From: a virus
UHGV virus genome: UHGV-0095853
DNA length: 35,246 nucleotides
Strand: one strand, 5' to 3'
Positions within the stretch are counted from its first letter, which is position 1. The number at the start of each line of letters is the position of its first letter. Both the position numbers and the translations under genes were made by a program. Positions 19,925-32,548 of this stretch are shown here, piece by piece. A model generated the notes under the pieces. The model saw only the letters and a list, made by a program, of their open reading frames with translations, was not told the origin of the DNA and ran no database searches.

Positions 19925-20198
19925 CCTGCAACTAGCCGTTAAAGGTGAATACTTCGATGCCATAATTCGTGGAGAGAAAACGGAAGAGTATCGCCTGTGT
20001 AATGACTACTGGAATAAGCGAATTATGTTCCGGGAGTATGACCGCCTGATTATCACAAAGGGATATCCGAAGCGCGACGATTCCAGCCGCAGAATTGACG
20101 TTCCGTATGAAGGATATGAAATCAAGACAATCACACATCCCCAATTCGGCGATAAACCGGTAAAGGTGTACGCGATAAAGGTGAATATCAATGGCTAA
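19917..20198 (+). CDS. ASCH/DUF3850-like small protein (tentative)
   Basis: EYFDAIIRGEKTEEYR...REYD pattern; GTG start with GCAGGAGG 8 nt upstream. Confidence 0.4.
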   Translation: MDNLQLAVKGEYFDAIIRGEKTEEYRLCNDYWNKRIMFREYDRLIITKGYPKRDDSSRRIDVPYEGYEIKTITHPQFGDKPVKVYAIKVNING

Positions 20199-20631
20199 AT
20201 TTCAAAGAGCTATTATTTTTCTGGCTATGTTATCAGCCAGTCATTTATCCCACGCGTCAGTTATTGCCGCTGGAGCGGCGGCAACAGCGACGGCAACAGC
20301 GGCGGCAACAGCAGCGACCACGGCGGCAGTAAATGCTTCTATCGCCAGCGAGCAAGCGCGGCGTGCTGCAACCAATGCTTCCGCAAACACCACCACGGTA
20401 TCAGTAACACAATCAAAACCGAATATAGGCTTTGTTACTTGCGGAAAGAGGAATAGCGAAATGGTTGGTTCTCTTGGTTGTGTAATGTGGCAAGAGGACG
20501 ATAGGCCTGAAATCCCGTGGAACTCATGGCCTGGTTACATTCTTGGTAAGAAGATACCCACCAGCTATGAAGTAAATGCTATTTCATTCGACCAATATAA
20601 CGGTGTTGCAACGGTGTATTTTCTGTATTAA
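20191..20631 (+). CDS. Exported protein with Ala/Thr-rich linker
   Basis: Signal peptide (IIFLAMLSASHLSHA) then AAATATATAAATAATTAA low-complexity tract. Confidence 0.55.
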   Translation: MAKFQRAIIFLAMLSASHLSHASVIAAGAAATATATAAATAATTAAVNASIASEQARRAATNASANTTTVSVTQSKPNIGFVTCGKRNSEMVGSLGCVMWQEDDRPEIPWNSWPGYILGKKIPTSYEVNAISFDQYNGVATVYFLY

Positions 20632-21402: not shown

Positions 21403-22157
21403 CAAGAATCACTAAAGAGCGTATTTCAGATATTATTTCCCGTATCGAAATGTATGGTCACGGTGCTGGATATACGGCAGATGAAGTATTGGCACTTGCC
21501 CAAATGGCTTTGGCGGCTTGCAAAGATGATAAAAAAATGAAGCTTATCGACTTGTTAGTGAAAGAGCTGCCTAAGTGCGGCGGGTGGCCTGATGGTATGA
21601 TCGATTGTCGCCTGCTCAGTGCCAATTTAATGGCGCCATGCGCGACTTTTGCTTTTGGCTCAGACCACAAAAAAGACACGTTCTTTGGGCGCAATTTTTG
21701 TTGTGAGATTGAGCTTCCAATTGGTGACCTTGATAGCGATGAATACCTGTCAGTTGTCACTCGCGAACAATACGAATCAGCTCTCATAGCGTCGCAGAAA
21801 GTCGAGTTCAATGGTGATGAACTTGAAAGTAAGACTTACAGGTTGGATTTTGGGCAATGGCTGGAACAGCAACGCGGGAAAATCGATGTGGACTGTGGTT
21901 GTGTGTCCACTGAAACATTCATGCACTGGCTGCGGGTAGCTTACGAGGCTGGCAACCATCCGGATTTTCCGGATAGTTCCCAACAATCGCCCAAGAAAAG
22001 CGTAAAAACCACTCTGGAAAGAGGCTATCTTGAGGCCGCATTAAAGATTAAGCCGGGCCATACGCTAGGCGTCATTGATGCCATGTTGGTTCATGAAATG
22101 GCGAAGGCTTTATTGCCGCTGGTGGCTGATAAAATTCCGAATAAAGCCGATATCTGA
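21399..22157 (+). CDS. Hypothetical protein (about 252 aa)
   Basis: ATG 21399 overlaps upstream stop; Cys-rich. Confidence 0.55.
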   Translation: MTRITKERISDIISRIEMYGHGAGYTADEVLALAQMALAACKDDKKMKLIDLLVKELPKCGGWPDGMIDCRLLSANLMAPCATFAFGSDHKKDTFFGRNFCCEIELPIGDLDSDEYLSVVTREQYESALIASQKVEFNGDELESKTYRLDFGQWLEQQRGKIDVDCGCVSTETFMHWLRVAYEAGNHPDFPDSSQQSPKKSVKTTLERGYLEAALKIKPGHTLGVIDAMLVHEMAKALLPLVADKIPNKADI

Positions 22158-22170
22158 TCACCATGCTAAA

Positions 22171-22199
22171 ATCCCCTCAATTCACAGAGGGGATTTTTG
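22171..22199 (+). terminator. Intrinsic terminator after gene 21399..22157
   Basis: Hairpin atcccctc-aattcaca-gaggggat followed by TTTTT. Confidence 0.55.
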
Positions 22200-22202
22200 T
22201 AT

Positions 22203-22469
22203 ATGTTGCATAGAGTTTTATGGAAAAGCGTTATTGTCGGCGCGATACTGGCTATATCTGGGTGTGCAATGGTGCAATACAACGACGGTGAAAAGGTAAG
22301 CATACAGTCAGATGGTTGGTATGGCCTGGATAGCCTGCAAAAAACCGCAGATAAAGCCTGTCAGCAATATGGGAAGTCTAAAGCAGTATATCAGCATAGC
22401 GCGAACGCTAACCCTCATCTAGCGCCCGGTTCTGGTGTTCAGAATACCATCTGGAAATGTGAGCCTTAA
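22203..22469 (+). CDS. Putative lipoprotein
   Basis: Signal peptide ending in lipobox-like ISGC; ATG at 22203. Confidence 0.5.
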
Positions 22470-22471
22470 AT

Positions 22472-22723
22472 ATGAGCGACTGGAATATTGCAGCTAAAAG
22501 TCAGGAAGAACGGGATAAGGTTAACGTTGATCTGGCTGCCAGCGGTGTGGCGTACAAAGAGCGATTGAACATACCTGTCATAGCTGAACAGGTAGCCCGC
22601 GAGCAACCAGAGAATCTGCGCACCTATTTCATGGAACGGCTACGGCACTACCGGCAGTTAAGCCTCCAGTTGCCAAAAGGGAGCGATCCGGTGTATCAGA
22701 ACGAGGATGCACCAAAAAAATAA
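22472..22723 (+). CDS. Hypothetical protein (83 aa)
   Basis: ATG 2 nt after upstream stop. Confidence 0.5.
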
Positions 22724-22808
22724 CGGCAAGATGGGGGAGAAATGTGATTAGCCCCCAGCGTGGCGCGCCTACAAACCCCGCTTTCACAAACTATGCCTTT
22801 TCAATGTA

Positions 22809-22828
22809 TACTGTATGAATAAACAGTA
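22809..22828 (+). promoter_or_regulatory. LexA (SOS) box upstream of the UmuD'-like gene
   Basis: TACTGTATGAATAAACAGTA: CTGT-N8-ACAG with AT-rich centre, 19 nt upstream of the ATG. Confidence 0.7.
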
Positions 22829-22846
22829 TCATTGAGGTAAAACGCT

Positions 22847-23236
22847 ATGGGCTTCCCTTCTCCTGCGGCGGATTATGCAGAGAGCCGCATTTCTCTTGAT
22901 CAGCAACTAATCAGACATCCTTCCGCGACCTACTTCATGCGGGCGGCAGACAGCCATCACCGTGAGGGAATATTGCAAGGTGCTTTGCTGGTGGTTGATT
23001 CCTCACTTACTCCGGTTGATGGTTCACTGCTTATATGCGCCATGGAGGGTGAATATCGCATAAAGAGATACAGGAAGTATCCGCGCCAGCACCTGGAGGA
23101 TTTAAGCACCGGGAAGAAAGAGGCGTTACCAGTGGATGACGATGGATGCACGGGCAGTAATGCTGTGTTTGGTGTGATCACTCATGTCATTAATGATGCC
23201 CGAAGTGGGGAGTTTGATTATAGACCTGTGATTTAA
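22847..23236 (+). CDS. humD: UmuD'-like protein (P1 HumD-type, begins at the position of the UmuD autocleavage site)
   Basis: MGFPSPAADYAESRISLDQQLIRHPSATYF matches UmuD residues 25 onward; Ser and Lys of the S24 dyad retained; lacks the N-terminal 24 residues. Confidence 0.8.
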   Translation: MGFPSPAADYAESRISLDQQLIRHPSATYFMRAADSHHREGILQGALLVVDSSLTPVDGSLLICAMEGEYRIKRYRKYPRQHLEDLSTGKKEALPVDDDGCTGSNAVFGVITHVINDARSGEFDYRPVI

Positions 23237-23249
23237 GGCGCATAAAGAA

Positions 23250-23277
23250 GCCCGCCAGACCTGGCGGGCTTTTTGTT
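23250..23277. terminator. Bidirectional intrinsic terminator between convergent humD and the terminase-paralogue operon
   Basis: Stem gcccgccag / ctggcgggc followed by TTTTTGTT. Confidence 0.65.
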
Positions 23278-23281
23278 GATA

Positions 23282-24376
23282 TCATTCAATGATTTTTTCG
23301 GCTGTCAGCCAGCTAATTTCGTGCCTGTCTTTCGGCGGTTTTAGCATGTGAGCATATTCAGCGACATGCTCCCACGGAATTGTTTTTGCCCACTCAACGA
23401 TAGCATTGTGATCTGCAGTGAAGAGTGGAATAGTGTGCGATTTCAACCATTCTAATGTCGTGACGCCATGTTTTTTGGCGTGGTGCTGCGCATGATGCCG
23501 GGCTATCACTCGTAATGGCATTGTCCATTCACTACCATCAGGCATCGAAAAGCGCATTGTCTTCGGCATATCTGATTCAAGAACAGCCTCCCTAATACCA
23601 GGGAACTCACCAAGAATCATACGACGATAGTCATCACTATTTCGCCCGCCATACCTTTCGGCAAAATGATCAAGATATTCTTGGGTAATAAATGGTGAAT
23701 CCTCCGCACTCAGCTTAATGGCTTTATATACACCACTCGGATTATCTTCAGCTAAAGCACGTCCATGATGTGAATCATAAAAAAAGCCTATTTCCTCTGG
23801 TGACGGAATTGAAGTGAGCAATATGCGTGAATCACCACTAGTCATGCTTGCCCACACAATGCTGTATGCCCGATCGCTGATATGTGCGGAATCCACAATA
23901 ATGAATAAAAGATGGTCGGCGTAGTGACCTGCAATGCTATCTTCATAGTTAAGGCGGTAGTTACAAAAGCACATTCCCCAAAATTCATTGAACATCAGAC
24001 CGCTATCACCGACCTTAAAATACTCAATGATAAAAGGTTGTTTTTTCAGCAATGCCTCCCAACATTGCCACACATATGCAACAATTCCTCTTTTGCAAAC
24101 ATTTGATTTTGGATAAACAATTACTGTCCGGGAATCAGGATACATAATCGTATAAAGGGTACTAATAACAGCAAGCACTTGCGGTCGTCCGATCCCATAC
24201 GGAGTGGTGACAGTAGCTTTTGCATTATTGGGCTGTATAGCTTCAACAATTTGTTGTTGCTGGTGGCTTAAATCAATATCAAACAATTCTTTTGCTGCCA
24301 GTACCCAATTGTCTTTATATTTCTCCACCAGCGACAGCCAGCGCGGATCTTTATAAATATTGCTCTTAGTCGCCAT
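23282..24376 (-). CDS. Terminase large-subunit (PacB) paralogue with degenerate Walker A and B motifs, lacking the C-terminal nuclease region
   Basis: Collinear with the N-terminal two-thirds of PacB at 29676..31184 (DPRW, SHQQQ, FYDSHH, DNP.G, SPF.T, YGGR); Walker A TSGHGTGKSS replaced by TTPYGIGRPQ; Walker B LILDEA replaced by IIVDSA; ATG 24376. Confidence 0.65.
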   Translation of the reverse strand: MATKSNIYKDPRWLSLVEKYKDNWVLAAKELFDIDLSHQQQQIVEAIQPNNAKATVTTPYGIGRPQVLAVISTLYTIMYPDSRTVIVYPKSNVCKRGIVAYVWQCWEALLKKQPFIIEYFKVGDSGLMFNEFWGMCFCNYRLNYEDSIAGHYADHLLFIIVDSAHISDRAYSIVWASMTSGDSRILLTSIPSPEEIGFFYDSHHGRALAEDNPSGVYKAIKLSAEDSPFITQEYLDHFAERYGGRNSDDYRRMILGEFPGIREAVLESDMPKTMRFSMPDGSEWTMPLRVIARHHAQHHAKKHGVTTLEWLKSHTIPLFTADHNAIVEWAKTIPWEHVAEYAHMLKPPKDRHEISWLTAEKIIE

Positions 24377-25133
24377 CTGCCACTTCCTTAACTTCTTCTT
24401 TGGCCTGTTCTGCAATCGCCGCACGGCATTTCGCCCTGGCTGTAGCGATTGCTTCAGCTCGCACATCGTCTGGAATCGTTGACGTGATATACATATCCAG
24501 TTCTTCGGCACGGAATACTGTTTGGTCCAGATATTCGCGTAGCATCCAGGTAAATTCGAAATCACACGCGATAATCTCTGCGCTACCTTCTGCACCATTT
24601 GGGAAATGAATAAATGCCTGTTTAGCCAAACCGATAACACGACATGCGGTTGCCAAAACAGCGACAACCAGGTTTACATTTTCACACGCTACGGGCTGAT
24701 TAACGCCGGAGATTACTCCATTTAACTGTCGGTTATATGGAAGGTAGTTTGAGATGCGTTCTACGCGCCATGTGCCAGTCAGGCTGCCATTTTTAAAGAT
24801 AATTGGTGTAACGGATAGCCCAAGCTCGCGTATAAGTCGTTGCGCTATAGCAGGATCATTAAACAGGTCTAATGCTACACATTCGAAAGACTGCGCAAGG
24901 GCAAACAGTTCTTCCAGAGAGTAGTCTTTGCCCCTGGCGGTGATGTAACGACGAACGCCGCTGTCTGCATCACTCCATATAGCTACGCCATGCTCTTCAT
25001 TCAGCTCTTCATTAAAGCCGAGATACGTCATGATAGTGCGTTCAATCGTGTCAAACGGCAGTGACATGTCGGCGTTAACAGCCACCAGCAGGCCATTACG
25101 CAAGCGGTATTGAATTGTTTTAGTGCTTTCCAT
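24366..25133 (-). CDS. Hypothetical protein (255 aa)
   Basis: ATG with GGAG upstream; overlaps downstream gene by 11 nt. Confidence 0.55.
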   Translation of the reverse strand: MESTKTIQYRLRNGLLVAVNADMSLPFDTIERTIMTYLGFNEELNEEHGVAIWSDADSGVRRYITARGKDYSLEELFALAQSFECVALDLFNDPAIAQRLIRELGLSVTPIIFKNGSLTGTWRVERISNYLPYNRQLNGVISGVNQPVACENVNLVVAVLATACRVIGLAKQAFIHFPNGAEGSAEIIACDFEFTWMLREYLDQTVFRAEELDMYITSTIPDDVRAEAIATARAKCRAAIAEQAKEEVKEVADGD

Positions 25134-25139
25134 GTCAAA

Positions 25140-25802
25140 TCACTCCACAACAAACCAGTCACAGGCCAGCAGGTCGCCAACTGAAGGCACCCACGGAACA
25201 ACTACACCTTGTGCATTTTTTAAGGCGAAATAAGCACCATACGGAACGAGGTCGCCGGGGAAATATCCCTTAATGGCTTCCATTCGTGCCGGGTACTGTC
25301 CTTCAGGAACCAGCCAGCAGAATTGGTTTTCGCCGTTCCACCCGCGTCGGGCAACTTTCTTGCCATCCTTCAGCCACATCAGCGCGTCAGAAAAGTCGGC
25401 TGCTTCAAGGTCGATTTCTTCTTGTAGAGTAGCGATACCGCCAGCAGAAATAGTTACGTCCCTGGCTGTAATGAATGTCACCCCATTGTGACCTTCAATG
25501 CTGAGCGATACCCCATTTTCGGAGGCGTCGTTAACCCGGCTATAGCATTTTTCAAATGCTTTCTCTGGCACATAGACCAGATAACCATTTTCAGCAGTGA
25601 CGAGATATCCTCCTATTTGCGGTCGGAACTTTTCCAAGAACACACCATCAACACGAAGCGTCATTCCTTTTGGCTCCACGACTTCGATGCTGCCAAAAAT
25701 GGGCGCATAAGCTTTGCCGACAATAACAATATCTTTGATTTTCGATGCCCGAATGATGCTGTGGCATTTGTATTTGGGGAACACCTGAAAAGTGCTGGCC
25801 AT
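25140..25802 (-). CDS. Protein with C-terminal DUF2829-like (Tad2-like) domain and an unknown N-terminal domain
   Basis: C-terminus ALMWLKDGKKVARRGWNG ... VVPWVPSVGDLLACDW matches the DUF2829 pattern; GAGGAAGG before ATG. Confidence 0.55.
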   Translation of the reverse strand: MASTFQVFPKYKCHSIIRASKIKDIVIVGKAYAPIFGSIEVVEPKGMTLRVDGVFLEKFRPQIGGYLVTAENGYLVYVPEKAFEKCYSRVNDASENGVSLSIEGHNGVTFITARDVTISAGGIATLQEEIDLEAADFSDALMWLKDGKKVARRGWNGENQFCWLVPEGQYPARMEAIKGYFPGDLVPYGAYFALKNAQGVVVPWVPSVGDLLACDWFVVE

Positions 25803-25816
25803 AATCCTTCCTCTAC

Positions 25817-26311
25817 TTAAAACTTTGCGTACTGAAGCGGTGTACGCTTGATTTCAACGCGGCCTTCCGATGTGCTACCAAAGCCACCAGCACCACGCTC
25901 CGTTTCGTTGAGTTCCTCAACCTCGACTAGTGAGACTTGTTCAACACGCTCAAAAATTCCTTGCATGACAGCCATTCCAGGCTTGAGACAAACGCCTTCC
26001 CCGCCGGGATCAGTAATCAGTTTTGCCATGATTTCGCCGCGATAATCGGAGTCGATAATTCCTACGCAGTTAGCCAGGCGAGTATGTTTTTTGCAGCCCA
26101 ATCCTGATCGCGGATAGAGTTTCAGACACCAGCCTGGCGGGATCTCCATAGCCAGTCCGGTATACACCCACCAGCTTGAGGAAATTGCACCATTGCTATC
26201 GACGCATGGTTTTATTTCAACAGCCTCAAAATCCATCGCCGCCGATCCGGAGGTGGCATAAGCTGGAAGTTTTGCTGCCGGATGTAGGCGTTTCACTTTT
26301 ACGTAAATCAT
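25817..26311 (-). CDS. dut: dUTP diphosphatase (dUTPase)
   Basis: AYATSGSAAMD, PRSGLG, GIIDSDYRGEI, ERGAGGFGSTS motifs. Confidence 0.85.
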   Translation of the reverse strand: MIYVKVKRLHPAAKLPAYATSGSAAMDFEAVEIKPCVDSNGAISSSWWVYTGLAMEIPPGWCLKLYPRSGLGCKKHTRLANCVGIIDSDYRGEIMAKLITDPGGEGVCLKPGMAVMQGIFERVEQVSLVEVEELNETERGAGGFGSTSEGRVEIKRTPLQYAKF

Positions 26312-28612: not shown

Positions 28613-29650
28613 ATGAGTAAGAAGTCGATCGAGAAAGAGTACAAACGGTTCCTGCAAACCGCTGAACGGTGGAAAGAGCTGGTGGTCGCAAACTCTGTTT
28701 TCCATGATACCAGTTATGCCGGCGAGGAATTCCGCCATGTTGCACTAACACATGATCAGAATGTGCTAGAAGAAGCTGAAAAGTGCCTCACAGAATGGAA
28801 AGCCTTTGTTGACTTGTGCCGTAACGCTGACGGCAAAGCGTCTAACATTGTTGAGTCTGTATATTCTCCGATCCCATTCATTATCGAGGACACAAATCAA
28901 AGCACGCATATTGTTGTGCAAAGCGCGACCACCACCCGCTCATTTACGCGCGAAAATCTGCTCAAAAAATATGATGCAATTATAAAGAAAAGCCTGAAAA
29001 ACAAGATATTTTCGCAGATTGTTGGTGCGCTTGAAGAAGAGCGCCGTTTTTTCGCATCAGAACCTGAAGGGGAAGTTTACCGGGCGCGCAAAGATGGATA
29101 CACAGATGTAGTGCTTACAACAAACATTGAAGGCAGCAATGCTCTGTCACGATTCAGGGTAGGCGCACACGGAGCCTTAGTGTTCGCAAAACTTCCTAAC
29201 ACCACAGTGCCCGTTGTTAATAATGTCGGCGAACGTCGCAGCATTACTATTTATTCTGGGGTTGAGTCGATACCTTGCGGCCTGCTTGGTGACTTTAGTC
29301 TCTATCGCGTTCGCGATCTGGAGAAACACCAACCAAGCTATGTTGCGAAGTCATACATCTTGCGAAACATCGACATCCGCAATGAGAGCTTAAAGAACAA
29401 ATCAGCCAAAATGCTTGAGGAAGCCGATCCGGCTATTCGCCATATCATTGAGCGTAAAATACAGACAGCACGCGAAGCGATGGCGCGACTGAATAAAATG
29501 GATCTGGAGTTGTTAGACGTAATGATGACATCCGGAGATGACCTGACAGGCATAAAACTGACAGACGCGCGGAAAAGATACGGTAAAACCATAGAAGAAC
29601 GTTACGGGTTCACTTTCTCCCAAACACAGCACGCCGCTAAACTCTGGTAA
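28613..29650 (+). CDS. Hypothetical protein (345 aa) at the c1-equivalent position; positional candidate for the immunity repressor
   Basis: Convergent with pacB and divergent from the recombinase, as c1 is in P1; operator-like site directly upstream; no sequence-level confirmation. Confidence 0.5.
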   Translation: MSKKSIEKEYKRFLQTAERWKELVVANSVFHDTSYAGEEFRHVALTHDQNVLEEAEKCLTEWKAFVDLCRNADGKASNIVESVYSPIPFIIEDTNQSTHIVVQSATTTRSFTRENLLKKYDAIIKKSLKNKIFSQIVGALEEERRFFASEPEGEVYRARKDGYTDVVLTTNIEGSNALSRFRVGAHGALVFAKLPNTTVPVVNNVGERRSITIYSGVESIPCGLLGDFSLYRVRDLEKHQPSYVAKSYILRNIDIRNESLKNKSAKMLEEADPAIRHIIERKIQTAREAMARLNKMDLELLDVMMTSGDDLTGIKLTDARKRYGKTIEERYGFTFSQTQHAAKLW

Positions 29651-29654
29651 TCAC

Positions 29655-29683
29655 AAGCCCCGCATTGCCGGGGCTTTATATAT
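29655..29683 (+). terminator. Terminator-like hairpin after gene 28613..29650
   Basis: Stem aagccccg / cggggctt with loop cattgc, then TATATAT. Confidence 0.45.
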
Positions 29684-31184
29684 CCAGATCTGGCATTTCC
29701 ACATCTGCAAGAACCTGATCGCGGAAGGTAGCCATTTCAGCGCCGATATCTTCATTAGCAGGAACATAGTCCACCAGCATTGTAAAGCAGTAGGTATCCC
29801 ATCGGTCAGGTGATTTGATGTTCAGCTTTTGCCGCATGTGCTCCTTGCGCATCATCGCCATCTTCCCTTCTTCATTAAGTAAAAAGGGGATTTTTGACGC
29901 TTGCTCTGCCGTTTTAGGGTCACTGTCTATTCGCATACGACCTGACTTTATGGCATCACGAGCCATAATATTTGCGTAGGCACGCTGGTTAACAAAACGC
30001 TCCTTGTCTTTGTTCGAAAACATGGGTTTCCCCCACCGAATCCGTACCGGATTAGCCCCACGGCGCACCAGCTGCGCACAGGTATCTGAACCAAAACCGT
30101 CTGCGTCAACCGCGATTGTAATATTCGGGTATTTATCCGGCGTGCATTCGTTGTATATAAAGTCAGCAAAAGCCAGCGGGTCCATAGTCCCTGGCATTTC
30201 CATTACCTTAAAGTTAACAACACGCCGCTTTTCCCGGTGACCAGACACTTTACAGATATTAAGAACTGACTTGTCTCGCCCGTTACCAACGTCAGCAGTA
30301 GCCACCCATCCCCAGTTTTTCTCCAACAACACCTTGCGCCGCGCAGCGCGATCGCATTCATCACGACCAAGCAAATAGCCGTTAATCTCCCGAGGAAACT
30401 GACCAAGAACCTTGACCATGTACTCAATAGAATCGCGCCCGCCATATTCCAGGAGTTTCTGCCTGATGAATTGTGGTGTGACGAACGGTGATTCTTCTGA
30501 GTTAAGAACAATTGCTGTCCAGATCCCTTTCGGGTTGTCTGGGGTTTTAGCTTGAGAATGGTGCGAATCGTAGAAATAACCACTTGGCCTTGTTGGCTGG
30601 GATAGCATCAACATTCGGTTATCTTCTTCAGTCAGAGCGCCAGTCATTACGCCGATCGCTTTATCAGATATACCTGATGCTTCATCCAGAATTAGAAGCA
30701 AATGTGCCGCGTGCTCCCCCGCCAGAGCTTCTTCGTTACCGAGTCGATAGCCTTTGCAGAGAACTTCCCAGATCCCCTTTCGAGAGCGTTCATAAAACAT
30801 GGTGTCAGACAGGACAAAATAGGTCTGTAACCACCCATGACGCTTAACGGCATTCGCCCAATACTGTTTAACGTATTTGAATACACCTGTCTTAACCTGA
30901 CCTATTTTGTTAGCAACAATGATGACACGGGCATCGGGGAACAGAATCAAATAAATCAGCAACAACATAGCCGTTAGCGACGATTTCCCTGTACCGTGAC
31001 CAGAGGTAACAGTGGTTCTGCTCCCTTTTTGCTGTACGGACTGGATAATCTCCTGCTGCTGGTGGGAGGGAAACATCCCGAATATATCAACAACAGCCTG
31101 GGTAAAGTTGTAGCGGTATTTGATTACCATATCGCGCCAGCGTGGATCGCTGGTGACGCATTTAATCTTGCGCCCACCAGCCAT
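29676..31184 (-). CDS. pacB: Terminase large subunit (PacB-like)
   Basis: Walker A TSGHGTGKSS, Walker B LLLILDEA; 502 aa; directly downstream of the small-subunit gene with 1-nt overlap. Confidence 0.8.
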   Translation of the reverse strand: MAGGRKIKCVTSDPRWRDMVIKYRYNFTQAVVDIFGMFPSHQQQEIIQSVQQKGSRTTVTSGHGTGKSSLTAMLLLIYLILFPDARVIIVANKIGQVKTGVFKYVKQYWANAVKRHGWLQTYFVLSDTMFYERSRKGIWEVLCKGYRLGNEEALAGEHAAHLLLILDEASGISDKAIGVMTGALTEEDNRMLMLSQPTRPSGYFYDSHHSQAKTPDNPKGIWTAIVLNSEESPFVTPQFIRQKLLEYGGRDSIEYMVKVLGQFPREINGYLLGRDECDRAARRKVLLEKNWGWVATADVGNGRDKSVLNICKVSGHREKRRVVNFKVMEMPGTMDPLAFADFIYNECTPDKYPNITIAVDADGFGSDTCAQLVRRGANPVRIRWGKPMFSNKDKERFVNQRAYANIMARDAIKSGRMRIDSDPKTAEQASKIPFLLNEEGKMAMMRKEHMRQKLNIKSPDRWDTYCFTMLVDYVPANEDIGAEMATFRDQVLADVEMPDLDI

Positions 31185-32548
31185 TAGTCATCCTCCGGCG
31201 GTTCTATCGCAATATCATCATCTCCGGCGTCATACCCTGCATCTGATGCATCATAATCACCGTAAATTTCAGCCGTTGCCGAAGGGTCAATGTCCAACTC
31301 TTCATCGTTGGCCTCGAATTCCCCAGCCTTACGCTCGCCATTGTGGTCGTAATCTCCGCACCCCAGATCTTCAACAATGGTTGCCACATCCGCCCGGCGC
31401 TCTGCCAGCCATTGCGGATGGTTAGCCTGAAGCGATGCAAACTCCTTCGCTTCTTTGTCCAGCTGTTCATCATCAACATCATTGATGTCAGAAACTGGAG
31501 GTTCGAGAAGAGTGATAGCTTTCGCCGCGCGCGCCGCGAGGATAGCCGGGACACTGACACCCTGACGCTCGATGTATTCAGCAACACCGATATCGTCCAG
31601 CTCCTCGCGCTCACGCATACGTATAGCGGCGGCGATAACTCTGGCTGCGCGTGCGTCAGCGCCAATGCGATATTCAATCTCTTTGCCACGCTGTTCGGCC
31701 TGTAGGCGTGCTAATTCGAGTTTTTCTCTGGCCTCGGCCTCTCTGAATGCTTGCTGGCGAGCACCCTGACGAAGTTTTTCATCACCCTGTCGCAGCTTTT
31801 GTTCGGACTGATATATCGCTGCCAACCTACTGATAAAATCGTTCATGTAGTAGGCCGCGTCACTGATTAGACCGAGAAGTCGCTGCCCAGGGTGCATTCC
31901 TTCTGGCTGTTCATCACCCAGGGCGTCTATCTCCGCCTGTAGGCGTTCGGCCTCCTGATCAACAATGCTTTGGTACTGAAGTGCGCGTTCTTGCGCCATT
32001 TGAATTGCTAACCGCAGGTGCTCTTCTGCGCCGTTCTTCATCATGTCGCGAGCCACACTCGTAGTGGGCAACGTGGCACGCTGCACAGCACCGCCAGGGA
32101 TCATTGCTGAAGATCCCTCGATTTTTGAGGCGCATTTATCTTCGGTGGGGATCATTTTCGCCATTTTTTCGCGCAATGATCTCCTGACAGATTCTTTTAT
32201 CTCATTGTTATTATTGTCGTTATTTTTATGATCCGAAGTTTTCTTTCTCGGCATGCTCCGGAAAGAACTTCCGCTCTGTGAATTGTCAGTTTCTGTAAAT
32301 TTTGTTGTTTCTGTACCCTCTTCTGGCCTTTTTTTTGCTCTTCCTGCCCGTTTTTTTTCAGGTGATTTGGTGCTTTTTTTTGTAGTCTTCACCTGCGACC
32401 GCACCTCATTTTTTTTCATATTGAGATGCTTTCTGGCGGTATTGAAGCTAAGGTCGTGTTGCTCGCAGTATTCCTTTACGGTGATCCCTTTTTCTTCACG
32501 CAACGCTATAAATTTGGCGCGGTGCTCTTCCCAATTAACAAGGCTCAT
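31184..32548 (-). CDS. pacA: Terminase small subunit (PacA-like)
   Basis: N-terminal HTH-like segment (ITVKEYCEQHDLSFNTARKHL); position upstream of pacB; contains GATC-hexamer cluster; long acidic C-terminus. Confidence 0.7.
   Translation of the reverse strand: MSLVNWEEHRAKFIALREEKGITVKEYCEQHDLSFNTARKHLNMKKNEVRSQVKTTKKSTKSPEKKRAGRAKKRPEEGTETTKFTETDNSQSGSSFRSMPRKKTSDHKNNDNNNNEIKESVRRSLREKMAKMIPTEDKCASKIEGSSAMIPGGAVQRATLPTTSVARDMMKNGAEEHLRLAIQMAQERALQYQSIVDQEAERLQAEIDALGDEQPEGMHPGQRLLGLISDAAYYMNDFISRLAAIYQSEQKLRQGDEKLRQGARQQAFREAEAREKLELARLQAEQRGKEIEYRIGADARAARVIAAAIRMREREELDDIGVAEYIERQGVSVPAILAARAAKAITLLEPPVSDINDVDDEQLDKEAKEFASLQANHPQWLAERRADVATIVEDLGCGDYDHNGERKAGEFEANDEELDIDPSATAEIYGDYDASDAGYDAGDDDIAIEPPEDD
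32099..32233. other. Candidate pac (packaging initiation) site: five GATC-containing hexamers within 135 bp inside pacA
   Basis: GATC at 32099, 32112, 32150, 32178, 32230 with AT-rich tracts between; about 0.5 expected by chance. Confidence 0.4.

Follow-up and report, generated by a model that had tools for sequence, protein, structure and literature searches.

Why should a phage-plasmid that already encodes a complete packaging terminase keep, some distance away, a second terminase-like gene stripped of its catalytic motifs? The question is raised by the virus genome UHGV-0095853, a stretch of 35,246 nucleotides (nt) that is called the window throughout this text and that comes from a D6-like member of the P1 phage-plasmid family; parts of its positions 22000-26000 are 95% identical to phage D6. 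The resident terminase of the window is PacB, and the gene in question encodes a paralogue of it. Our results indicate that this paralogue very probably descends from a PacB-type terminase large subunit (TerL) and has been kept by selection as a non-enzymatic protein, fused to a foreign C-terminal domain (the tail) and coupled to a homologue of the P1 protein IsaA. As to what it does, the reading that we prefer, with a probability of roughly one in three, is that of a binding-only terminase mimic, which would compete for a partner of PacB and modulate packaging. Terminase large subunits are usually treated as single-copy hallmark enzymes, so that any second copy tends to be ignored or wrongly labelled 'terminase'.

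The relationship with PacB, first proposed from a reading of the DNA alone, is well founded. A BLASTP comparison with the resident PacB is collinear, with 96 identities over 258 positions (37%, E 6e-62), and pairs amino acids (aa) 7-259 of the paralogue with aa 10-264 of PacB; identity to the PacB proteins of P1 and P7 is 33-35%. The first-pass annotation had described the match as covering the N-terminal two-thirds of PacB. The match is indeed N-terminal, but it extends over the ATPase half, about 53% of the protein. Both proteins share an N-terminal DPRW..KY region, a QQ motif, EE..AG, G.FY.SHH, SP and YGG..S..Y...G.FP. The position of the catalytic motifs was anchored with a profile of 70 PacB-like terminases, which matches the solved structure of Sf6 gp2 (4IDH) in both domains (E 8e-22) and places the Sf6 GRGSGKS under the PacB P-loop and the Sf6 VEEA under the PacB DEAS. 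The pairwise and the profile alignments both support the loss of the Walker A lysine, with GIGRPQ opposite GTGKSS, and of the Walker B glutamate, with DS opposite DE, as had been claimed at the outset; motif III is altered as well (Table 1). These losses are not an effect of a displaced loop, given that no intact P-loop occurs elsewhere in the window's paralogue.

The nuclease half of PacB is missing altogether. The tail, about 102 aa that follow residue ~262, does not resemble the PacB nuclease domain at the level of profiles (hhalign probability 0.4%), and its origin as a diverged nuclease was rejected on this ground. The invariant or near-invariant residues D298, D360, D460 and D463 of the PacB nuclease half have no counterpart in the paralogue. 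The initial description of a nuclease replaced by an unrelated tail stands, except that the tail is longer than the 90 aa given then. Homology to the ATPase domain of TerL is preserved (phrog_2, terminase large subunit, E 9e-9), whereas Walker A, Walker B, motif III and the nuclease are all lacking, and so is linkage to pacA, the gene lying 5.3 kb away from pacAB without an adjacent pacA. Since the paralogue has none of the functional attributes of TerL that were examined, it should not carry the annotation 'terminase large subunit'. It would be better described as a pseudo-enzyme derivative of a packaging ATPase, belonging to the TerL superfamily by homology; unlike PacB, it ends in a foreign domain in place of an RNase H-like nuclease, and it is dispensable. 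For the paralogue, for PacB alone and for the profiles of IsaA and the tail, searches of PDB sequences found no relative; solved terminases were reached only with the 70-sequence PacB-family profile. Pfam, NCBIfam and PADLOC yielded nothing of use for the paralogue, for IsaA or for the tail.

The paralogue belongs to a family distinct from the working terminases. It matches PHROG 5902 over its full length (E 1.1e-164, aa 4-363 against profile positions 2-358 of 359), a family without annotation, whose GenBank members are labelled 'hypothetical protein' or, wrongly, 'terminase large subunit', and to which the fragment families phrog_20197 and phrog_34449 are related. When 1.8 billion representatives were searched exhaustively with HMMER, 767 matched; beyond the family, the best were PacB-type terminases, with at most 36% identity. 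The matches include proteins of 250-270 aa made of the ATPase-like domain alone, plus one protein of 444 aa with a different C-terminus. In an alignment of 135 sequences, made up of the top matches of at least 230 aa and of four from the window and related loci, the motifs G.G.GK[ST], hhhhDE and (S/G)(Q/N)PT are retained by the live terminases, with exceptions in a few rows that inteins or misalignment have disturbed. None of these three motifs is present in the window protein, in its 65% and 52% relatives or in the short proteins. We call such proteins dead, in the sense that their loss of motifs predicts an absence of ATPase activity. Across the dead clade, the lysine position is occupied by R, Q, H, E, M, C, T or I, and the DE pair by DS, TE, AE, MD, NS, VN, TD, PN, HA, PD or PQ. 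The loop of the 65%-identity allele class is GIGQKT or GIGHKS, and not GxxxxGK[ST], and in this class it is the Walker B aspartate that is lost.

In a neighbour-joining tree (without support values), a single clade, nested within the PacB-like terminases, contains 13 of the 15 dead proteins. Dead proteins match phrog_5902 with E values of 1e-55 to 1e-75 and the terminase PHROG with only 1e-5 to 1e-10, and the shorter ones match the N-terminal 260 positions of the phrog_5902 profile. The dead paralogues thus appear to be an old, distinct lineage among PacB-type terminases. The ATPase-like domain is the core unit of this family, as the 250-270 aa forms show, together with a tail-less variant of 266 aa found at the same locus in another D6-like element. 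A position-by-position comparison of the dead clade with 17 live PacB-type terminases identified 30 scaffold positions common to both, including W, Y, QQ, G.G, EE..AG, S.P, G.FY..HH, SP, GG and G.F. Another 18 positions are conserved only in live terminases and lost in the dead clade, and correspond to Walker A, Walker B, motif III (where they include the Q/N and T positions) and a few others. Taken together, these two sets indicate that catalysis was lost selectively while the fold was kept. Several metagenomic PacB-like terminases (P0039, P0053, P0069, P0072, P0115 and P0120) have inteins inside the Walker A loop, between GHG and GK[ST].

The gene is conserved and not decaying. Full-length copies that include the tail were found by tblastn in 163 PLSDB plasmids, in identity classes of ~100%, 97-99%, ~65% and ~52%, in three GenBank Punavirus records, and in 117 of 5,426 complete Escherichia coli genomes (~2%), where 191 of the 193 matches lie on plasmids. 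The window's protein has identical counterparts in several PLSDB records, each from an E. coli plasmid of ~90 kb. Scans of genome collections with single-protein patterns found nothing; a scan with a closer alignment recovered two loci with tail-bearing paralogues and otherwise only true terminases. The search in P1-like genomes that had been suggested at first gave a divided result, the gene being present in Punavirus records and plasmids and absent from P1 and D6 themselves, which makes it a dispensable accessory gene. Comparison with relatives of 97.5-98% identity showed 15-26 synonymous and 7-9.5 non-synonymous differences, a ratio of non-synonymous to synonymous substitution rates (dN/dS) of 0.09-0.13; for the dead domain alone, the ratio is 0.08-0.12. 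The gene is thus under purifying selection. In phage vB_EcoM-813R1 (L003 4989-6059), the Punavirus-type paralogue has 356 aa with its last ~30 residues divergent; this 3' end looks like a frameshift, either a real variant or a sequencing error.

Selection acts on a domain that also moves. Between the window and the plasmid CP057047, PacB is 97.8%, PacA 93.6%, IsaA 97.6% and the tail 97.1% identical, while the N-domain of the paralogue is only 53.8% identical, with a synonymous divergence (dS) of ~1.4. DNA identity drops sharply near 24440 and recovers near 23643. The reverse is found between CP057047 and CP104667, whose N-domains are 100% identical and whose PacA and IsaA are only ~74-76% identical. 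The dead ATPase domain behaves as an exchangeable, highly divergent cassette.

The tail is a widespread small phage domain and not a random extension. A profile search found at least 1,319 members, nearly all of them stand-alone proteins of ~100 aa, with no Pfam domain and no solved structure. The window's tail aligns over its full length with this family (the C-terminal part of phrog_17928), including eight invariant residues (P, A, A, F, W, W, A and W). Lambdoid prophages and P1-like elements carry members of this family, as a rule in the early region; in some cases a DnaB-type helicase is encoded two genes upstream. In Cronobacter phage JK004 (gene_35) and in many lambdoid prophages the domain is a separate protein, and elsewhere it forms the C-terminus of a DUF1351 protein, whereas here it is fused to a dead terminase domain. 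In Xanthomonas podophages, the tail-bearing DUF1351 protein is encoded directly upstream of an ERF recombinase, an exonuclease and a single-stranded DNA-binding protein. The example from Xanthomonas phage SAC (L007 2882-4294; BFVD A0A679KCY7) is a DUF1351 protein of 470 aa that ends in the tail domain. The existence of the 266-aa variant implies that the tail is not indispensable to the family. In contrast with the tail, which is spread across many phage types, the dead domain was seen only in elements of the P1 type that have a PacB-type terminase as well.

The coupled partner of the dead domain in the window is the product of the gene upstream, a protein with 48% identity to P1 IsaA (E 3e-89). 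The first-pass annotation had proposed translational coupling of the two genes, and the arrangement agrees with it: the ATG of the paralogue overlaps the isaA-like stop by 11 nt, with an AAGGAAG Shine-Dalgarno sequence 9-15 nt upstream. The overlap measures 8-14 nt in six relatives, and one tail-less variant has a 10-nt gap. That IsaA might be the detached nuclease of the terminase was considered and rejected (hhalign probability 0.7%). The isaA-paralogue pair of Punavirus genomes is flanked by ssb and hxr and sits exactly at the isaA locus of P1. P1 (NC_005856 21569-24552) and MH422554 are 97.7% identical until 9 nt into the paralogue, which has a GTG start there, and again from hxr on. In P1 the slot after isaA holds 94 nt, the insertion sequence IS1 and isaB; in D6, isaA is followed by pdcA-doc-phd. 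While the IsaA of the P1 isaA/IS1/isaB locus is homologous to the upstream partner, IsaB is unrelated to the paralogue. Its origin as a remnant split off by IS1 was rejected, given the absence of similarity and the points at which P1 homology stops and resumes. Decades of P1 genetics missed the gene because the reference P1 has IS1 and isaB in its place.

Other dead paralogues have other companions. In a metagenomic P1-type element (L011 7336-8792), a dead paralogue of 263 aa overlaps the stop of a gene for a Ref-like RecA-dependent nuclease (PF16786), a second and different coupled partner of the dead domain. Further dead paralogues are preceded by a radical-SAM gene, or have no partner and lie close to genes for a parM-type partition protein and a C1 repressor. 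Among the long contexts whose backbone could be identified, three have the P1/P7 C1-repressor marker, while ref- and hot-like genes are found instead in that of P0014. These markers link the dead domain to P1-type elements, which encode PacB-type terminases, and to their packaging.

A binding-only mimic would act as follows. The paralogue would work by binding and not by hydrolysis, its PacB-like N-domain engaging a partner of PacB, which may be PacA, the PacB ring, the portal or pac DNA, and P1-type packaging would thereby be modulated or blocked. Its target would most plausibly be a P1-type competitor or a satellite that shares the cell; a role in controlling the packaging of the element itself is less likely. 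Partner specificity would be determined by the divergent, exchangeable N-domain, with IsaA and the tail as accessory parts. The first-pass annotation had likewise suggested that a dead terminase copy could regulate packaging or interfere with it, for example against co-infecting phages or satellites. We favour interference by mimicry because the dead domain is restricted to P1-type elements with PacB, because its scaffold is kept, because the gene is dispensable, and because the cassette is exchanged as expected of an interface in conflict. Two kinds of precedent exist. Walker-mutant subunits of terminases and other packaging ATPases poison ring motors, although these are laboratory mutants and not natural genes. 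The satellite proteins Ppi, of Staphylococcus aureus pathogenicity islands (SaPI), and Rpp, of phage-inducible chromosomal islands (PICI), block the packaging of their helpers by binding terminase subunits. They offer a possible analogy, that of a non-hydrolysing component that might occupy an interaction site of the terminase, Ppi and Rpp being unrelated to the paralogue in sequence.

Several observations weigh against this mimic. The allele of the N-domain does not track the resident PacA/PacB allele, which argues against tight co-evolution with the element's own terminase. The P1 annotation has no promoter or terminator between ssb and isaA, and, given that the pair follows ssb in Punavirus, this suggests early, C1-repressed expression and not late expression at the time of packaging. 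The tail family and some relatives of the paralogue adjoin replication or recombination genes. A dominant-negative subunit would also threaten the packaging of the element that encodes it. Finally, nucleotide binding might persist, since the Q motif and the G.G loop are retained. The first-pass annotation anticipated neither the separate tail domain, the IsaA partner and the other coupled partners, nor the uncoupling of alleles from PacA/PacB, and all of these leave room for roles outside packaging. A broader version of the same idea is slightly less probable. P1-type phage-plasmids might keep a rapidly exchanged 'pseudo-terminase' as a weapon or shield between mobile elements, a dominant-negative mimic or decoy whose N-domain chooses a rival's terminase, portal or immune sensor; the two-gene module of IsaA and pseudo-terminase would then have been lost to IS1 in classical P1. 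If true, this would make it the first packaging inhibitor or decoy of natural origin to derive from a terminase.

The neighbours of the tail family lend themselves to a different explanation, which we regard as unlikely: the paralogue may be an adaptor in replication, recombination or repair, in which the dead translocase fold binds DNA or a partner (for instance a nuclease, a recombinase or part of the replisome) and has no role in packaging. The association on which this would depend is loose. Among 36 diverse viral loci, DnaB or lambda P is one of the three upstream genes in only six, the rest having mostly assorted early accessory genes, and an enrichment analysis of the tail's gene neighbours, with crude calling of open reading frames (ORFs), showed no strong functional association. 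The tail itself is dispensable at the same locus. As for IsaA, its predicted model is of moderate quality (predicted local distance difference test score, pLDDT, 73), its structural matches are weak and no nuclease motif is evident. An adaptor would, moreover, leave unexplained why the dead domain is confined to elements of the PacB type.

It has also to be considered that the paralogue is aimed at host immunity and not at packaging. An early, harmless terminase look-alike might titrate or blind immune systems that sense TerL, for example Avs-type NTPases of the STAND class (signal transduction ATPases with numerous domains), a decoy to which we give a lower likelihood than to an adaptor. Its setting would suit such a purpose, with Tad2-like (Thoeris anti-defence) and dUTPase genes as neighbours here and in relatives, and the hxr-ddrB-ddrA-darA antirestriction block next to the Punavirus locus; early expression is likely, and a hypervariable N-domain cassette fits an arms race. 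Avs recognition of terminase uses the ATPase and nuclease active-site regions. These are exactly the regions that the paralogue lacks, and binding would be expected to trigger the sensor, not to block it. No anti-defence family was matched in Pfam, nor in PADLOC, which contains defence-system models only, and a decoy does not explain the confinement to P1-type elements.

The converse arrangement, in which IsaA and the pseudo-terminase form a two-gene exclusion or defence module whose dead domain senses the packaging proteins of an invader and switches on an effector, seems to us improbable. It would account for a coupled pair in two different genomic slots (D6-type and Punavirus), for hypervariability in the domain proposed as the sensor, for the toxin-antitoxin modules nearby and for the pairing of another dead paralogue with a nuclease. 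However, no effector domain was identified, and PADLOC-DB 2.0, searched with E values up to 0.1, gave no defence-system family for the paralogue or IsaA. IsaA is found mostly without the paralogue, in 478 plasmid records as compared with 163. The probable C1-repressed expression in Punavirus is ill suited to a defence expressed from the prophage. In P1, isaA was shown by CRISPR interference to be non-essential and has no reported phenotype (PMC10695390).

A decaying duplicate, or an active terminase masked by a sequencing error or a shifted P-loop, has nothing in its favour but the loss of the catalytic motifs and the nuclease domain and can practically be dismissed. ORF and architecture are intact in the 163 plasmids and 117 E. 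coli genomes, dN/dS is ~0.1, and the ORF is preserved in each of several deep allele classes. The motifs were lost not by frameshifts but by substitutions, which differ from lineage to lineage and fall at the same positions, and the element has its own intact PacB. No sequencing error can restore an active enzyme either, since hundreds of independent records show these dead motifs.

We found no published description of this gene, of any natural catalytically dead terminase paralogue or of the function of isaA, in a literature search that covered only a minority of subscription journals. What emerges is a conserved, selected lineage of terminase ATPase domains, apparently without catalysis, on P1/D6-type phage-plasmids in ~2% of complete E. 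coli genomes. These phage-plasmids also spread resistance genes and serve as transduction tools. A natural inhibitor or regulator of headful packaging, if the paralogue is one, would bear on the competition between phage-plasmids and satellites, on the efficiency of generalised transduction and on the origins of viral pseudo-enzymes. The analysis also brings to notice a large, uncharacterised family of ~100-aa phage domains.

The paralogue occupies the distal end of a string of minus-strand genes, which begins with a Cre-like recombinase and two small ORFs and continues with dut, the Tad2-like/DUF2829 gene and the isaA-like gene. Pfam matches to dUTPase and Tad2-like bear out its initial placement in a dut/DUF2829 string, and relatives keep the same dut/Tad2-like order upstream. 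The features of the locus are collected in Table 1.

Table 1. Positions in the window of the PacB paralogue, its parts and its neighbours.
Feature	Position	Strand	Details
PacB paralogue, predicted dead	23282..24376	-	364 aa, ATG at 24376; PHROG 5902
Terminase ATPase-like domain, predicted non-catalytic	23591..24376	-	aa 1-262; aligns with PacB aa 10-264
Degenerate Walker A	24179..24205	-	TPYGIGRPQ, aa 58-66; PacB SGHGTGKSS, aa 61-69; Lys to Arg, Ser to Pro
Degenerate Walker B	23882..23911	-	LLFIIVDSAH, aa 156-165; PacB LLLILDEASG; Glu to Ser
Altered motif III	23801..23818	-	LTSIPS; SQPT or GNPT in live terminases
C-terminal ~100-aa domain (tail)	23285..23590	-	from a large family of stand-alone early-region phage proteins
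Exchangeable cassette	~23643-24440	-	most of the ATPase-like domain; N-domain 53.8% identical between elements with flanks 97% identical
IsaA homologue, coupled upstream partner	24366..25133	-	255 aa; PHROG 2326
Tad2-like/DUF2829 gene	25140-25802	-	Pfam Tad2-like, E 1.6e-22
dUTPase (dut)	25817-26311	-	Pfam dUTPase, E 1.7e-14
PacB, resident real terminase	29676-31184	-	502 aa; intact Walker A, Walker B and nuclease; 'terminase' in relatives' annotation
PacA	31184-32548	-	'DNA pacase A' in relatives' annotation
GC-rich hairpin, then T-rich stretch	23248-23271	-	between the convergent paralogue and humD; -19.3 kcal/mol, z -3.1

The hairpin downstream of the paralogue is likely to be a bidirectional terminator serving this gene and humD, judging from its predicted fold; it was not picked up by a simple terminator scan and was found on separate folding. 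It lies in a spacer of 46 nt (23236-23282) that has no doc or phd at that position. In close relatives (L004 and L022-L025), a doc-phd addiction module stands between the paralogue and humD, in the order paralogue and convergent doc-phd-humD.

The protein encoded at 25140-25802 (220 aa) has a C-terminal Tad2-like domain (Thoeris anti-defence 2, DUF2829; aa 136-219), preceded by an unassigned N-terminal part of 135 aa, and the D6 version consists of the C-terminal half alone (146 aa). Its identity to the counterpart in CP057047 falls to 42-73% in parts, which suggests that the gene is a second mosaic segment. Between cre and pacB, the plus-strand gene at 28613-29650 encodes a protein of 345 aa that one relative's annotation calls 'phage repressor protein'. 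Its match to the NCBIfam C1-repressor model is weak (E 4.5e-5, 23 bits, with a cut-off of 500 bits), and the protein would be a divergent C1-type immunity repressor; among elements whose PacB proteins are 92-98% identical, it is 81-90% identical. Further away, a plus-strand ORF of 146 aa at 20191-20631 encodes a signal-peptide-like N-terminus followed by a long Ala/Thr-rich stretch of low complexity.

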